Shown piece after piece: positions 11,208 through 56,720 of a DNA stretch of 64,000 nt; the first letter of the stretch is position 1, and every line of letters starts with the position of its first letter. Made by a program: the position numbers and the translations under genes. Origin of the DNA: Nitrosopumilus sp. GTDB lineage: Archaea > Thermoproteota > Nitrososphaeria > Nitrososphaerales > Nitrosopumilaceae. The stretch spans positions 896,001 through 960,000 of the forward strand of contig OZ250186.1 in assembly GCA_965238275.1 (NCBI GenBank). Direction: 5' to 3'. Under the pieces are notes generated by a model. The model was not told the DNA's origin and ran no database searches. It saw only the letters and a list, made by a program, of their open reading frames with translations.

Positions 11208-11768
11208 CTAGTCGTAGATCATCAGATCCTTCTCTTCTAAAAGCGAGTGCAGATTGTGAACCGAGCGGAATACGTCTGATTCCTTCTTGGCCCCCGTGCA
11301 TACCAGCTTGCCGGATGCAAACAGCAGTATTACCGTCTTTGGGTCAAGCATCCTGTGGATGAGCCCCGGGAACTGCTCGGGTTCGTACATGCTTCTTGGC
11401 AGGGTCCTTGCAGCCTTTTCAAGGTGGATTCTTCCACACAGATTGATTGCAGCCACTATGTTCTGGACGGTAACCACTGCGTCGTTTTTTATCCTGATTC
11501 TACCCTTTCTGAGCTTCTGTACCACTGTATTTACAGCCTTGACTGCCATCTCCTCTGACTTGGCCCCCGTGCACACCATCTTACCGGTTCGAAATATCAG
11601 TGTGGCAGTCCTTGGTTCGGCCAGCCTAAAAACCAGTCCTGGAAACTGCTCTGGATGATACTCTGTGTCGGGAAACTTTTCGGTAATCTTGATTAGATCT
11701 ATCTTCTGTTCCACCGATGCGGATGCAACAACATTCTCTACATTTACAATTGGCTTGGTCTGGGGCAT
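11208..11768 (-). CDS. tbp: TATA-box-binding protein
   Basis: Two TBP repeats (NVVASA...YHPEQFPGLVFR...LIFRTGKMVCTGAKS). Confidence 0.97.
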   Translation of the reverse strand: MPQTKPIVNVENVVASASVEQKIDLIKITEKFPDTEYHPEQFPGLVFRLAEPRTATLIFRTGKMVCTGAKSEEMAVKAVNTVVQKLRKGRIRIKNDAVVTVQNIVAAINLCGRIHLEKAARTLPRSMYEPEQFPGLIHRMLDPKTVILLFASGKLVCTGAKKESDVFRSVHNLHSLLEEKDLMIYD

Positions 11769-12374: not shown

Positions 12375-12691
12375 ATCCCGTCTGCGATGATCCCCGATTA
12401 AATTGTTACCTGCTCATTCTGGTATAATCTCGGGTGCGGTCCGGAGCCATTCACGCAATCCGGGCATGCTGCCATGCAACAACTGCATGGATGGCATCAT
12501 GCACTGATGGAACCGGTTCCCAGAAAGCAAAAACGACCCTTCCCCAACAACAAGACTGCCGCCGATCCCCCCTCCATGCATCAGACGTTTGCGACTGTGC
12601 CTGTGTGGTGGTGGCGTCCCATCCACTGACTCTGGTAGATTTTGGTGATCAGATCACAAATTTACGAGCCCATCCACTCGTATCTGTGCTA

Positions 12692-14203
12692 TAGACAAAA
12701 ACCAAAAGTTCATGCAATTTTTTGGGCACCTTTTTAAGAAAATAAATCCCAACTACAGGTATGATTGTCAGTAAAATCATCAAGATAACACAATCTCGGG
12801 AACTGTCACGCAAGATCGTGAAATGCTCCCGGGAAACAGACATCGTTTACGACATGACGATCATGATGAAACTTGCACACCCGGGGATCACACAGTTTGA
12901 TGTCAACAACCTGATAACAGGATGGCGCAGGGAATTCAACCTGACCAGCAGCGTCCGCATGCATGAGGCCGCCTCAAAGCAGGCTTTCCAGGCGGCAGTC
13001 AAATTCCGCAAGGCAAACCGGCTCAAGCACAACAAGCGCATCTGGCGCAAGACACAGATCAAGCTGGGGAAAAAGAAAACGTGCAAGCACAATCGGTGGA
13101 CCGAGCCGTCCAGCCTGATGAGGCGCGGCAGGAAAACAACCAGGCTGCGCTCGCTGAATTCACGCGCAAAGCCAAAACTGCGAGACAGTGGAGCCGTGTT
13201 TCTGCCCGGACTCGGGGAAGCAAGGCCACGCACGAAGGTTCCAGAAGGCAGGCTCGTGTCATTCCAGATGATTGACACCACAGGCAAGGTCACGCGTAAG
13301 ACCAAGGATGGTGATCGCGAATTCAAACTGCATTTGCAGATAGAAGTCCCAGACCCCGAACCCGCGACAGGCGGTGGCGGCGGCGGATGCAAGGCAGGGC
13401 TGGATCTTGGAGTCAGGCACCTTGCGGCAGTCGCAGACGAGCATGGGAACGAAAAACTGCACAATGTCCCCGGAGGCTGCAAGAGGCATGACGGCGACAG
13501 GATTGATCAGCTGAAATCACTTAGATCAAGATGCCATGCAGGTTCCAGAAGATGGAAAGAGATCGGCCGCAAGGTAACGCATGAATTGAAAAAGACATCA
13601 AACAGGCAAAAACACAACGAGGCCGACATTGCCAGGCGGATAACAAAAGGACTGTCCGTATTGTTCTTGGAAGATCTGGATTTGACCAAGATGAGGCGAT
13701 CCTGCGGGGCGGCTTCAAAGACGGGGTTGAACCGCGAGATGGCCTATTCCAGAATGGGCGAGTTCAGGATCCAGCTTGAATGGCAGATGAAAAAGAAAGG
13801 CGGAATTTCAAGACGCGTGGAACACGCACATACAAGCCAGAGATGCGCTGCCTGCGGGGTAGTGGACAAGAAATCCAGGAACGGCGAATCATTTGTCTGC
13901 GTCTCATGCGGATGGTGCCACCATGCCGACAAGAACGCGGCAAAAAACATTTTGGATAATGACTGTCTCCATACGGAGGAGACTGGCGGCCAAGCCCACG
14001 GGAATCGTGGAGGCACCATTGCAGGTGTCGAGGTCGTCACAAGGCGCGAGGATCACGGATCGGATAGTTCTGGAATGAACAATTCGACAGGTCGGCTTGG
14101 ATCCGGCAACGACGACAATATTGGAAGGTCTGACAGAGTGCCGGAAAGAGCATCAGGACATGCTACAGAGAGATCTGTTTGCACAAACTTTTGCTCGCCG
14201 CTA
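12692..14203 (+). mobile_element. Non-autonomous TnpB-carrying element with IS630-like TIRs and TA TSD (copy 1)
   Basis: Left end TA|TAGACAAAAACCAAAAGTTCATGCA, right end TGCACAAACTTTTGCTCGCCGCTA|TA. Only tnpB lies inside. Confidence 0.8.
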
Positions 14204-14374
14204 TACTCGTCAATAATCTGTCAGACACTACCATACTCATCAATGGCTGCCTTTGGCAGTTTGGCCTCAAAGAAGCCCAGCTGTCCTGCGTACGGAACGG
14301 GAGCCATGAATGTTCTGGGGTTTCTGAGCATGAACCCAAAGGCCCTTGCAGGATGGCCGTCTCCTGCATGGTGA
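12761..14374 (+). CDS. tnpB: TnpB RNA-guided endonuclease (ORF reads through the right end)
   Basis: RuvC-I GLDLG, RuvC-II LEDL, zinc finger CAAC...CVSC, RuvC-III HADKNAAKNI. Confidence 0.92.
   Translation: MIVSKIIKITQSRELSRKIVKCSRETDIVYDMTIMMKLAHPGITQFDVNNLITGWRREFNLTSSVRMHEAASKQAFQAAVKFRKANRLKHNKRIWRKTQIKLGKKKTCKHNRWTEPSSLMRRGRKTTRLRSLNSRAKPKLRDSGAVFLPGLGEARPRTKVPEGRLVSFQMIDTTGKVTRKTKDGDREFKLHLQIEVPDPEPATGGGGGGCKAGLDLGVRHLAAVADEHGNEKLHNVPGGCKRHDGDRIDQLKSLRSRCHAGSRRWKEIGRKVTHELKKTSNRQKHNEADIARRITKGLSVLFLEDLDLTKMRRSCGAASKTGLNREMAYSRMGEFRIQLEWQMKKKGGISRRVEHAHTSQRCAACGVVDKKSRNGESFVCVSCGWCHHADKNAAKNILDNDCLHTEETGGQAHGNRGGTIAGVEVVTRREDHGSDSSGMNNSTGRLGSGNDDNIGRSDRVPERASGHATERSVCTNFCSPLYSSIICQTLPYSSMAAFGSLASKKPSCPAYGTGAMNVLGFLSMNPKALAGWPSPAW
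13960..14203 (+). ncRNA. Putative omega/reRNA scaffold of TnpB copy 1
   Basis: About 240 nt between RuvC-III and the right end, near-identical in copy 2; this is the usual position of TnpB guide scaffolds. Boundaries are inferred. Confidence 0.5.
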
Positions 14375-40072: not shown

Positions 40073-40723
40073 ATGGTCTGGTTAAGACGATGTACCCACT
40101 ACTTGTTCATAGTAGTAGTTGCAGTTAACTCTACACTGTTAACGATTAATGCAGGTGACTACATCTTCTACACTGATTGGGCCTGGACTTCGTACACGGT
40201 ATTCTCAATATCGCAGACGTTGATGCTTGTTGTAGGTGCAACATACTACCTAACATTTACAGGCGTTCCAGGTACCGCGACGTACTACGCCCTGATTATG
40301 ACAGTCTATACATGGATAGCCAAAGGCGCATGGTTTTCCCTTGGATATCCATATGACTTCATTGTGACGCCAGTCTGGTTGCCATCCGCAATGCTATTGG
40401 ATTTGGTGTACTGGGCGACGAAGAAGAACAAACACTCGTTGATATTGTTCGGCGGCGTACTTGTAGGAATGTCATTGCCATTGTTCAACATGGTAAACCT
40501 GATAACAGTCGCAGACCCACTAGAAACGGCATTCAAATACCCAAGACCGACACTGCCACCATACATGACACCGATAGAACCGCAGGTAGGCAAGTTCTAT
40601 AACAGCCCAGTTGCTCTCGGTGCAGGTGCAGGTGCAGTCTTGGCATGTACGTTTGCAGCCCTAGGTTGTAAGCTCAATACATGGACTTACAGATGGATGG
40701 CCGCATGGTCCAAGTGGGATTAA
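40073..40723 (+). CDS. amoA: Ammonia monooxygenase subunit A
   Basis: MVWLRRCTHYLFIVVVAVNSTLLTINAGDYIFYTDW. Confidence 0.99.
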   Translation: MVWLRRCTHYLFIVVVAVNSTLLTINAGDYIFYTDWAWTSYTVFSISQTLMLVVGATYYLTFTGVPGTATYYALIMTVYTWIAKGAWFSLGYPYDFIVTPVWLPSAMLLDLVYWATKKNKHSLILFGGVLVGMSLPLFNMVNLITVADPLETAFKYPRPTLPPYMTPIEPQVGKFYNSPVALGAGAGAVLACTFAALGCKLNTWTYRWMAAWSKWD

Positions 40724-41898: not shown

Positions 41899-41972
41899 AG
41901 CTTCGAGCGGGATCCGGACCCGCGACCTTTACCTTACCAAGGTAACGCTCTACCAGGCTGAGCTATCGAAGC
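41899..41972 (-). tRNA. tRNA-Thr(GGT)
   Basis: Cloverleaf GCTTCGATAGCTCAG...TTACC-TTGGTAA-GGTAA...TCGAAGC. Confidence 0.92.
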
Positions 41973-44622: not shown

Positions 44623-44697
44623 TGGGCCCGATGAGATTCGAACTCATGACCTTTCGATTATCAGTCGAACGCTCCAGCCAAGCTGAGCTACGAGCCC
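44623..44697 (-). tRNA. tRNA-Ile(GAT)
   Basis: GGGCTCGTAGCTCAG...TTCGA-CTGATAA-TCGAA...CGGGCCCA. Confidence 0.93.
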
Positions 44698-45525: not shown

Positions 45526-45595
45526 GGGCCGGTAGTATACCTGGTAGTATACCCGCCTTGCACGCGGGGGGTCACGGATTCAAATTCCGTCCGGT
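45526..45595 (+). tRNA. tRNA-Ala(TGC), 3' end truncated or garbled in this assembly
   Basis: GGGCCGG acceptor 5' strand, CCCGC-CTTGCAC-GCGGG anticodon arm, T-arm; runs directly into IS-B TIR sequence. Confidence 0.8.
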
Positions 45596-46363
45596 GTTTC
45601 CTAATTCTGCCGATACTCGTCTACGCCAAGTCCTGCATGCACATCTGCGGCGACGGCCTGAAGCTGACCTTTCGTATATCTGCAGATGCGCGTCCTGGTG
45701 GCAACGGACCACCGGTCGGGACTCCTGCACTGCCGCCTGTCAGCACACTCACGGTTCTCGGGGCATGCACCCGTTCGGGAGGCACGAATCACACAACAAT
45801 TAAAATCAGTGCCGGGACTACTTCTTGCGTGTTATGGCCGGCGTAGATCTTTTTGGTTTTGGCAAATCAAAAAAATCCCAAACGTGCAGCTTTATGAAGC
45901 CCCGCCTGGTCCCCCACTTTTCTGTCATCCAGTCGCCGCGGTTTGTGGGCTTGAGTCCAGTGGAGTCGAAGGCAAACAGCTTGATCTCGGCCCGGGTGCC
46001 GCCGTCTGAGAACCACGCAGAAGCCGTGGCTACCATCATCATTGTCTGCAACAGTGCAGCCAAGCTTGGCCATCCTCTTCTGGAACGCCGAGTACGTGGG
46101 CGCGTTTTCCTTGCCGACTATCGTCTCTGCCAGACCCTGGAGCTGCCTGTACCACGGTGGCGTTTTTGGGGATGCTGTGCAAAGCACGCGTTTGAAAATA
46201 CGTACGGGCGGCCTACCTTCCCGCAATTCCGTCCTGGAGGTCACAACCATCATCGTACTCCAGCCTCACCTGGAGAGGATGTGGCAGGATTCAATCCTTT
46301 TGGATGGATTTAAATAGGCCTAATACCTGCTGGGTGTGACTGGCGTAATTAGGAAACAGAGTT
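45596..46363 (-). mobile_element. Scrambled or partial copy of IS5 element B
   Basis: 45830-46225 is near-identical to 38336-38735; TIR remnants GTTTCCTAATT and TAATTAGGAAACAGAGTT. Confidence 0.8.
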
Positions 46364-54814: not shown

Positions 54815-54964
54815 CGCTGCAGACAGTATTGCCCCTGCCGAAAGAATTCCAGCCCCTATGACTGACTCTACCACCAGCCTCTGATGGATTGCCCTCTCCT
54901 CTGAGCCAGGCAGCATGCGGGATTCTGAACCAAGCCCCTCCTCAAGATACTGAATCTGGGGATA

Positions 54965-56543
54965 TAGCGACGCGCATAAATTCGTGCAGTCTAACCTGCG
55001 ACTGCAAACTCTGCGCTTTCCGGCGCTCTGTCAGACCTTCTATAGCGGCGAGCGAAAGTTCGTGCAAACAGATCTCTCTGTAGCATGTCCTGATGCTCTT
55101 TCCGGCGCTCTGTCAGACCTTCCAATATTGTCGTCGTTGCCGGGTCCAAGCCGACCTGTCGAATTGTTCATTCCAGAACTATCCGATCCGTGATCCTCGC
55201 GCCTTGTGACGACCTCGACACCTGCAATGGTGCCTCCACGATTCCCGTGGGCTTGGCCGCCAGTCTCCTCCGTATGGAGACAGTCATTATCCAAAATGTT
55301 TTTTGCCACGTTCTTGTCGGCATGGTGGCACCATCCGCATGAGACGCAGACAAATGATTCGCCGTTCCTGGATTTCTTGTCCACTACCCCGCAGGCAGCG
55401 CACCTCTGGCTTGTATGTGCGTGTTCCACGCGTCTTGAAATTCCGCCTTTCTTTTTCATCTGCCATTCGACTTGCGTCCTGAACTCTCCCAGACGGGAGT
55501 AGGCCATCTCGCGGTTGAGTCCGGTCTTTGATGCCTTTCCGTTGGATCTTCTCATTCTGGTCAGATCCAGGTCTTCCAAAAACAACGCTGACAACCCCCT
55601 TGTTATCCGCCTGGCGATGCCTGTCTCGTTGTGTCTTTGCCTGTCAGATGTCTTTTTCAATTCCTTTTTTATCACGCGGCCTGTTTTCCCCCACTCCCTT
55701 GATCCACGTTTGTATTTGGATCGCCGTGCACGCAGCCTGTCAATTTTGTCGCCGCCATGCCTTCTGCATCCGCCAGGAACATTGTACAGTCTCTCGTTTC
55801 CGTGACTGTCTGCCACTGCGGCAAGGTGCCTGACTCCCAGGTCAAGTCCTGCAATTTTGCCGCCGACGTCTGCAGGCTCCGGATCCGGAATTTCTGTTTG
55901 CAGGCACAGTCTGAACTTGCGCTGGAAATCAGCCGTCTTGCGCGTGACCTTGTCGGTAACGTCGATCATTTGAAATGACACCAGCCTGCCTTCAGGCATT
56001 GTCGTGCGCGGTTTTACTTCCCCGAGTCCCGGCAGGAACACGCACCCGTTATCACGCAGTTTTGGCCTTCCGCGGGAATTTAACGAACGCAGCCTGGTGA
56101 TCTTTTTGTCCCACCGCCTCATCAGGCTTGACGGCTCTGTCCACCTGTTGTGCTTGTACGTTTGACATTTGCCAAGCCTTGCCTGTTTTTTGCGCCAGAC
56201 GCGCTTGTGGTGCTTGAGCCGGTTTGCCTTGCGGAATTTGGCCACGGCCTGGAATGCCTGTTTGGATGCTGCCTCGTGCATGTGGCATGTGCCAGTCAAG
56301 TCAAATTTCTTGCGCCACATCGTTATCATATTGTTTAGGTCAAATTGGGTAATCCTAGGATGTGCAAGCTTCATCATGATTGTCATGTCGTAAACAATGT
56401 CGGTTTCCCGGGAGTATTTCACGATCTTGCGTGAGAGTTCCCTGGATTGTTTTATCTTGATGTTTTTGCTGACAATCATGCATGCAAATAGAATTGGTTT
56501 CTTAAAAGGAGTGTAAAAGTGCACGAACTTATGCTTTTAGCTA
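54965..56543 (-). mobile_element. Non-autonomous TnpB-carrying element with IS630-like TIRs and TA TSD (copy 2; chimeric, two right ends)
   Basis: Left end TAGCTAAAAGCATAAGTTCGTGCA; outer right end TAGCGACGCGCATAAATTCGTGCA (54965); inner right end TAGCGGCGAGCGAAAGTTCGTGCA (55043); TA at 54963-64 and 56544-45. Confidence 0.87.
55040..56479 (-). CDS. tnpB: TnpB RNA-guided endonuclease (copy 2)
   Basis: GLDLG, LEDL, zinc finger, HADKN; ATG start aligned to copy 1. Confidence 0.92.
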   Translation of the reverse strand: MIVSKNIKIKQSRELSRKIVKYSRETDIVYDMTIMMKLAHPRITQFDLNNMITMWRKKFDLTGTCHMHEAASKQAFQAVAKFRKANRLKHHKRVWRKKQARLGKCQTYKHNRWTEPSSLMRRWDKKITRLRSLNSRGRPKLRDNGCVFLPGLGEVKPRTTMPEGRLVSFQMIDVTDKVTRKTADFQRKFRLCLQTEIPDPEPADVGGKIAGLDLGVRHLAAVADSHGNERLYNVPGGCRRHGGDKIDRLRARRSKYKRGSREWGKTGRVIKKELKKTSDRQRHNETGIARRITRGLSALFLEDLDLTRMRRSNGKASKTGLNREMAYSRLGEFRTQVEWQMKKKGGISRRVEHAHTSQRCAACGVVDKKSRNGESFVCVSCGWCHHADKNVAKNILDNDCLHTEETGGQAHGNRGGTIAGVEVVTRREDHGSDSSGMNNSTGRLGPGNDDNIGRSDRAPERASGHATERSVCTNFRSPL

Positions 56544-56720
56544 TAGTCAAAGATTACGACCATGGAGCCAAGAACCACCATTACAATCCCCACCAGAAAG
56601 AGCATCGTACGGTTCATCTGATTCCAGTCATAAACTGCATCATTTAACCCTGGTCTAATCCGGTATTCCTTCCTGGGCCAAATTCGTGCAGGTCCTGCCC
56701 GATACAAATGTGGCTTTTTT

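Follow-up and report, generated by a model that had tools for sequence, protein, structure and literature searches.

An insertion element that carries the gene of a TnpB, a protein of a family of RNA-guided nucleases, occurs twice in a 64,000-nucleotide stretch of the genome of the archaeon Nitrosopumilus sp. (assembly GCA_965238275.1, contig OZ250186.1, positions 896,001 to 960,000; the stretch as a whole is here called the window). Our analysis of these copies, of the other copies in the genome and of their relatives leads us to conclude that the element is most probably a non-autonomous insertion sequence of approximately 1.5 kb, which contains tnpB as its only gene and a 3' part that resembles an omegaRNA, is bounded by terminal inverted repeats (TIRs) of the type found in one particular group of IS630 elements (family D, or IS630-D), duplicates a TA dinucleotide and is mobilised in trans. 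In addition, the elements are preceded on one side by a motif, T-N-C-TA, that likely represents the footprint of the transposon-adjacent motif (TAM) of the nuclease.

The genome to which the window belongs (G000) consists of a single contig of 2,216,668 bp (52.7% G+C, 99.9% completeness). As it carries the archaeal amoA gene, within the window itself (see Table 1), the host is an ammonia-oxidising archaeon. The genome of a relative (G017; one contig, 99% complete) provided the uninterrupted sites discussed below.

Ends, target duplication and coding content of the element

The TIR core pattern has six matches in the window whereas 0.73 were expected, and none of 100 shuffled sequences reached six. 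Five of the matches are element ends, each abutting a TA, exactly the number of TA-flanked ends that had been counted in the preliminary description of this DNA, which was made from its letters alone; the remaining one (62838), with two mismatches and outside any TA-TAG context, was set aside as a chance match. In the family consensus, which bounds nearly all copies, the left end reads TA followed by TAGTGAAAAGCGAAAGTTCGTGCA and the right end TGCACGAACTTTCGCTCGCCGCTA followed by TA, the left and right TIRs being identical at 3 + 15 positions that flank a differing block of 6 bp. The earlier view that both copies in the window have imperfect TIRs of about 24 bp stands in so far as both are bounded by such repeats and flanked by TA, with the refinement that the left TIR of copy 1 is degenerate and that copy 2 is chimeric and has an additional orphan right end.

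At the DNA level the element has 34 matches in the host genome, namely 19 near-full-length copies, three copies that are split by later insertions and several fragments. Many of the copies are 96-100% identical. One copy just upstream of the window (G000:C1 883621-891002) is split by some 5.9 kb that include an IS630 family A element (888673-890104), and three others (G000:C1 614931-616532, 642579-645958 and 1821561-1823161) all contain the same additional insert of about 90 bp (ends GAGACGTAATCCGTAATTAG...), which looks like a separate family of miniature inverted-repeat transposable elements (MITEs) that landed inside tnpB elements.

The TA flanks 20 of the 21 left ends and 24 of the 25 right ends, and a comparison with empty alleles indicates that it is duplicated, as had been proposed. 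At the site of copy 2 the relative reads ...GGA-TA-GTCAAAG where the window has TA, element and TA, and the relative's intact 94-aa protein (...VVIFDYPQIRY...) is the uninterrupted form of the gene that is split by this copy; the earlier deduction that deleting copy 2 together with one TA restores the reading frame of the host gene is thereby borne out. At the site of copy 1 the relative has ...CCTGTAC-TC-CTCGTCGATAAT and the window ...TCTGTGC-TA-(element)-TA-CTCGTCAATAAT. Two further empty sites are found within the host genome, as uninterrupted paralogues of two copies that lie in repeated DNA, again with a single dinucleotide (TG and AA, respectively). Since four independent empty sites show a single dinucleotide, the target duplication measures 2 bp. 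Contigs from other public sequencing runs join the element ends to other flanks, and among the contigs of four runs, two of them from RNA libraries, none showed an empty allele of the copy-1 site.

Copy 2 has a composite structure. According to a sliding identity profile the first 1.1 kb or so, at the 5' side, shares 51-93% identity with the main family, as opposed to 98-100% in approximately the last 420 alignment columns; moreover, a GCATAA variant is common to the TIR of the orphan fragment and the left end of the copy. The simplest history that we infer begins with an older, divergent copy that received an element of the main family at a TA in its 3' region; recombination between the two tnpB genes would then have followed. 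Such a history accounts for the presence of five ends in the window.

The open reading frames (ORFs) of copy 1 and copy 2 match the Pfam families OrfB_IS605 and Cas12f1-like_TNB above their cut-offs, and the protein of copy 1 obtains 112.9 bits with the NCBIfam model guided_TnpB (NF040570; cut-off 100). A search of solved structures gave TnpB/Cas12f chains as matches, to which the D of GLDLGV, the E of FLEDLD, the CxxC...CxxC zinc finger and the D of HADKN could be aligned, in agreement with the preliminary description, according to which both genes keep the RuvC D/E/D residues and the zinc finger. Residues D210, C357, C360, C375, C378 and D385 are invariant in a family alignment of 18 sequences, and in the TnpB core of about 400 aa the RuvC residues occupy canonical positions. 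No gene besides tnpB was found inside copy 1 or copy 2.

An ORF of at least 442 aa that starts with MIVSK is kept in 16 of the 22 copies (the near-full-length and the split ones taken together) and is broken in the other six. In 14 of these 16 the element contains no stop codon in frame: in eight copies the frame ends with CCG-CTA at the boundary, followed by TA-N, i.e. the stop is formed by the duplicated TA and a purine; the ORF of the copy at 1838553 terminates 5 nt beyond the right end; and in five copies, including copy 1, it runs on into the flank. Within the left end, some 25-35 nt upstream of the tnpB ATG (window 12717-12760), the sequence CCTTTTTAAGAAAATAAAT looks, by eye, like the archaeal TATA box of a leaderless transcript.

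The last 265 nt or so of the element have a consensus fold of 67 pairs, 12 of which show compensatory changes, with 99.1% of the cells in the alignment paired. The alignment comprised ten sequences, taken from three subfamilies in the host genome and from the relative. Its covariation score was reached by none of 500 shuffles and collapses in slid controls. No Rfam family matches the 3' region or the element, either at the gathering threshold or at E-values up to 1. The fold fits an omegaRNA scaffold that would end at the right end of the element. Contigs of two metatranscriptomic libraries cover the element, and one of them passes the right end by 230 nt into a different flank.

Table 1. Features of the tnpB copies and other genes in the window (positions refer to the window)
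Feature	Position	Strand	Basis or remark
TATA-binding-protein-like ORF	11208-11768		judged by eye from translation
TA target-site duplication, left of copy 1	12690..12691	.	sequence; homologous site in G017 has one dinucleotide (TC)
Copy 1 element	12692-14203
Left-end TIR, copy 1	12692..12716	+	degenerate: about 5 mismatches and 1 extra base relative to family consensus
tnpB ORF, copy 1 (MIVSKIIKITQS...)	12761..14374	+	no in-element stop; frame continues past right end into flank
omegaRNA-like structured region	13938..14203	+	overlaps ORF tail, ends at right end
Right-end TIR, copy 1	14180..14203	-	sequence, TIR pattern
TA target-site duplication, right of copy 1	14204..14205	.	sequence, empty site in G017
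Archaeal amoA	40118-40666	+
tRNA gene	41899-41972
tRNA gene	44623-44697
tRNA gene	45526-45598
TA bounding composite copy 2, right-end side	54963..54964	.	single TA in empty site of G017
Orphan right-end fragment, 76 bp (TIR 54965-54988)	54965..55040	-	putative original 3' end of divergent copy-2 element
tnpB ORF, copy 2	55040..56479 (or to 56524)	-	479 aa from ATG; stop TAG = TA duplication + next base
Internal TA, between main-family right end and orphan fragment	55041..55042	.	sequence
Right-end TIR, copy 2	55043..55066	+	identical to main-family consensus (reverse complement shown on + strand)
Copy 2 element, chimera	55043..56543	-	sliding identity profile
Left-end TIR, copy 2	56520..56543	-	sequence, TIR pattern
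Host membrane-protein gene split by copy 2, N-terminal part	56537..56707	-	remainder continues below 54964; intact 94-aa orthologue in G017
TA target-site duplication, copy 2 left-end side	56544..56545	.	TTTGAC precedes (element orientation)

Candidate helper transposases and related elements

Neither Y1_Tnp nor Resolvase (the domain of serine recombinases) has a match in the complete host genome or in that of the relative, control genomes being positive. The earlier remark that no Y1 or serine transposase lies beside either tnpB can thus be extended to the genome as a whole. DDE_3 has 34 matches in the host genome and 16 in the relative. We sorted the DDE_3 elements into IS630 families A to D and took their boundaries from multi-copy BLAST, because a search with exact TIR seeds, which took 32 IS630 loci and left out two sub-threshold DDE_3 matches, failed on most of these loci, their TIRs being imperfect. 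Family D consists of TA-flanked elements of about 1.1 kb and has two intact members, D1b and D2, the transposases of which (337 and 354 aa) both contain DDE_3 and helix-turn-helix (HTH) domains and score 172 and 175 bits, respectively, with the NCBIfam IS630 model NF033545 (cut-off 100).

The TIRs of the tnpB elements share 15-22 of 26 positions with the TIRs of family D and 5-15 with those of families A, B and C, the best match (22/26) being that between the right end of the tnpB element in the host genome and the 3' end of D2. IS630 transposases or MITEs with the same ends had been expected earlier, and the intact members of family D represent such transposases, with closely matching ends. 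All 22 copies lack a transposase in cis; the only transposase that lies inside a tnpB element belongs to the nested family A insertion. Because the TIRs are closest to those of family D and this family has intact transposases, we propose that an IS630-D transposase would bind the TIRs of the tnpB element and move it in trans by cut-and-paste. The preliminary description had put forward a non-autonomous tnpB element with IS630-type ends, mobilised in trans, in an ammonia-oxidising archaeon: its TIRs, the TA duplication, the intact D transposases and amoA were all found, and we infer the mobilisation itself from the likeness of the ends.

In three IS630-D elements (L063, i.e. D1b; L064, i.e. D2; and L065, from the relative) the transposase ORF terminates within the 3' TIR of the element itself, where it reads ...C(K/T)NF-stop, and the tnpB ORF crosses its right TIR (window 14174-14203) in the same frame, with ...VCTNF(C/R)SPL. 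This hints at a derivation of the right end of the tnpB element from the 3' end of an IS630-D element. IS630-D2 itself (G000:C1 1873253-1874348) sits in a (GTA)n microsatellite, beside a fragment with a D1-type 3' TIR at 1872989.

The tnpB elements of the relative measure 1479-1481 bp, are 64-70% identical to the family in the host genome at the DNA level and are bounded by TA followed by TACTGACGCGCAAAAGTTCCTGCA and TA followed by TACCGACGCGCAAAAGTTTTTGCA, ends that again resemble D-type TIRs. In a third genome a TnpB that is 70% identical (L061) lies within the same TIR and TA architecture. A scan of genome contigs for close relatives with a single protein gave two loci, and matches at E <= 1e-10 occur in 25 of 301 sampled genomes of the order and, besides the host genome, in one of 30 sampled genomes of the genus. 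The next TnpBs, from the same archaeal family, are only 33-39% identical and belong to elements of about 1.44-1.6 kb in two genomes (G249, L073 and L098; G056, L074 and L099). An association with IS630 was considered for these and rejected, as their ends are not of the IS630 type and feature a different TIR, the 13-bp repeat GGGAATTATATAC, which is found at both ends in G249 and at one end only in G056; the flanks in G249 resemble AT-rich duplications of 6-8 bp. It follows that the association with IS630 is, among the genomes searched, confined to a small clade, and the elements in G249 and G056 may represent a second, different association of TnpB with TIRs and target-site duplications in these archaea.

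In a search based on protein features from a language model the nearest cluster was TnpB-like and 95% viral (Nucleocytoviricota), which serves as a lead only. A pattern scan of viral contigs, for which the alignment of 18 sequences was used, yielded 31 candidate stretches, none of them a relative, and a link between this TnpB and giant viruses is therefore not claimed.

The one-sided flank motif and its possible explanations

Read in element orientation, all 21 recognisable left ends in the host genome have a C at position -3, i.e. directly before the TA (background frequency 0.168; binomial P = 5.6e-17), so that the ending C-TA, first remarked upon in the left flanks of the two copies in the window, is shared by every one of these ends. 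A T at position -5 in 17 of the 21 (P = 3e-7) extends the motif to T-N-C-TA. After the TA of the right end the base is G in 10, C in 9, A in 4 and T in 2 of 25 cases, and the difference between C on the left and G on the right is reflected in a Fisher P of 1.2e-5. The asymmetry returns in the divergent family of the relative, with C at 5 of 5 left ends and its equivalent at 3 of 5 right ends, and the left flank of L061 reads TTC-TA. Where D-type ends occur outside tnpB elements, C precedes TA in 8 of 14 cases.

We consider the motif a likely TAM footprint because the absolute T-N-C bias is found on precisely that side where a TAM is needed if the guide is read from the flank of the right end. 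In such a scheme each copy would give rise to an omegaRNA that extends from the scaffold past the right end, and the flanking sequence so transcribed would serve as guide. A TnpB with that guide would cut the uninterrupted allele, where the left flank supplies T-N-C-TA, and would spare the occupied site, in which ...CTA-TA, a sequence other than T-N-C-TA, stands before the flank; with the occupied copy as the repair template, the insertion would then be restored or would spread. The idea of a TAM near CTA, put forward in the preliminary description, is supported by these flanks, though not proved. Taken as a whole, the reading in which T-N-C-TA is the footprint of a TAM that includes the 5' TA copy, in which the nuclease acts as a filter on the TA insertions that persist, and in which the IS630 ends were captured independently, is one we put forward tentatively, as a serious possibility that falls somewhat short of an even chance.

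A number of observations weigh against these interpretations. The similarity between the tnpB elements and IS630-D is limited to the TIRs and falls short of identity there, and D elements of the TAC type and of the TAG type are both present in both genomes. As a consequence, the IS630-D transposases are candidates for the cognate enzyme. The number of independent lineages behind the covariation in the 3' region is only about three, and the covarying region is part of an open reading frame; the RNA-library contigs over the element and its right end may reflect carry-over of DNA, which makes them a weak hint only. Furthermore, excision by a DDE transposase itself leaves a double-strand break, and the benefit of homing by TnpB is less obvious than for IS200/IS605 elements, as discussed in a section of a 2026 review (PMC13565253). 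Finally, the T-N-C-TA bias could arise from a preference of the transposase, exerted through those inner TIR positions at which the left end differs from the right.

This last point leads to the main competing explanation, in which the element is mobilised by IS630 as proposed above and T-N-C-TA merely mirrors the target preference of the transposase or the context of the site, with a TnpB that perhaps has no role in retention. IS630 prefers CTAG as its target. A mild preference for G or C on both sides of the TA (19 of 25 right ends, together with the C at over half of the D-type ends without tnpB) fits such a transposase, and the 6-bp inner block would give it a means to tell the two TIRs apart. 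Yet a dimer that acts on TIRs with near-identical tips should have symmetrical preferences, whereas the observed bias is absolute on one side only, is accompanied by the additional T at -5, recurs one-sidedly in the divergent family of the relative and affects the side where the TAM must lie for a guide from the right flank. We therefore regard the competing explanation as rather unlikely, albeit a good deal less so than the two that follow.

In a more conventional scenario the element would belong to the IS200/IS605 group (IS1341 type) or to IS607 and be moved by a TnpA encoded elsewhere, and the TA would be a target or crossover dinucleotide that is not duplicated. Most prokaryotic TnpBs fall in these groups, according to the parts of PMC13565253 that treat their distribution; a serine recombinase that acts on a TA core would likewise leave TA on both sides, and IS607_TnpB is the highest-scoring named NCBIfam subfamily for copy 1. 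Its 91 bits are nevertheless far below the cut-off of 350, as are the 57 bits obtained with IS200_TnpB below that of 425, and the lack of Y1_Tnp and Resolvase matches in both genomes, the possession of 24-bp TIRs in common with IS630 elements and the 2-bp duplication at four empty sites have already largely refuted this scenario, which we hold to be extremely improbable. Only marginally better, and still very unlikely, is the prospect that the copies, as relics in decay or as a domesticated TnpB (e.g. a regulator), owe their spread to segmental duplication instead of recent transposition. Six broken ORFs, the degenerate left TIR of copy 1 and the interruption of several copies by other elements would agree with it; on the other hand, the flanks are unrelated and each copy has its own TA duplication, many copies are highly identical, 16 of 22 preserve long ORFs with the catalytic residues, the family is present in so few genomes of the genus, and contigs from other public runs connect the ends to different flanks.

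Relation to known systems and implications

The preliminary description implied that a Fanzor-like arrangement would be new for a prokaryote. This does not hold, as both IS630-linked and solo TnpBs are already in print. Altae-Tran et al. 2023 (PMC10691335) describe a large branch of TnpBs, DDE-6, that is tied to IS630 DDE transposases and has symmetrical ends; they report inverted terminal repeats for all DDE-associated TnpBs, suggest mobilisation in trans for some solo TnpBs that lie within ends nearly identical to those of transposase-bearing systems, and note that IS630-linked TnpBs may connect prokaryotic TnpBs to Fanzors. The review cited above (PMC13565253) restates the IS630 link in the passages concerned, treats TA duplications as part of Fanzor TAMs and, in its section 6.2, calls the pairing of a nuclease of the OMEGA class (obligate mobile element-guided activity) with a DDE cut-and-paste transposase rare and poorly understood in prokaryotes. 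IS630 serves as a negative control in the relevant part of the preprint of Meers et al., and the passages of Yoon et al. 2023 (PMC10711439) on elements with TIRs and target-site duplications discuss these only for eukaryotic Fanzors. A full-text literature search gave no paper that joins TnpB with the truncated term Nitrosopumil, the papers found on TnpB with DDE transposases, terminal inverted repeats and TAMs include none on this lineage, and the lineage is not named in the text or in one supplement of PMC10691335, the supplement holding only an IS630 profile accession and phylum counts.

With the DDE-6 branch, as it is characterised in PMC10691335, where it is judged mobile, the present elements have in common a TnpB within symmetrical TIRs of the IS630 family, a tnpB 3' end near the end of the transposon, solo TnpBs with the ends of transposase-bearing elements and proposed mobilisation in trans. 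In DDE-6, by the same published description, the TnpB loci also encode an IS630 DDE transposase and, separately, an HTH protein, in several cases in giant viruses, whereas the 22 copies analysed here have no transposase in cis and the host is an ammonia-oxidising archaeon. The arrangement as such has been known in prokaryotes since 2023, and what is new here is an archaeal, purely non-autonomous, high-copy example.

Fanzor1 reportedly resides in DNA transposons of the Tc1/mariner type in eukaryotes and giant viruses, as Bao and Jurka (2013) and Saito et al. (2023) are said to have found. Like Fanzor1, as summarised in sections of PMC13565253, the elements place a TnpB-family RNA-guided nuclease between TIRs that belong to a DDE transposon which duplicates TA; in Fanzor1 the guide RNA ends at the right end and the 5' duplication lies where the TAM is read, features of which the counterparts here are predicted. 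Unlike the divergent, enlarged protein of Fanzor1, with its eukaryotic or viral host, the protein is a compact TnpB with best matches among TnpB/Cas12f structures, and its host is an archaeon. In being tnpB-only, non-autonomous, present in many copies and equipped with a (predicted) 3' omegaRNA the elements are similar to the IS1341 group of IS200/IS605, and in another respect to IS630-derived MITEs such as RUP of pneumococcus, which are short, non-coding and non-autonomous sequences that use the TIRs of IS630, generate TA duplications and are more numerous than the autonomous partner; the full nuclease gene and the structured RNA distinguish the present elements from such MITEs. Unlike the IS1341 group, which according to the pertinent passages of PMC13565253 has neither TIRs nor a target duplication and depends on a Y1 TnpA, they have TIRs and a TA duplication in a genome devoid of Y1 matches.

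Provided that the tentative reading of T-N-C-TA set out above is correct, an RNA-guided nuclease selects which DDE insertions last, in that it homes into empty T-N-C-TA alleles or restores them. The family would then form a prokaryotic parallel to the partnership of Fanzor1 with mariner, separate from the published IS630-linked branch, and it would be explained why a hitch-hiking tnpB element, with about 22 copies, outnumbers its autonomous helper, which has three to four. In addition, a compact archaeal TnpB with a putative RNA scaffold joins the pool of candidate editors.

The case constitutes a clean natural example, with a complete genome, no competing TnpA, many recent copies and empty sites that can be read. 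Candidate helper transposases with matching ends are present in the same genome, and the one-sided motif amounts to a concrete TAM prediction, T-N-C-TA; it is this motif, along with the clean genomic context, that merits experimental work. The family thereby allows a direct test of the cooperation between a nuclease with a guide RNA and a TA-duplicating transposase, which is the same problem that Fanzor1 poses in eukaryotes.

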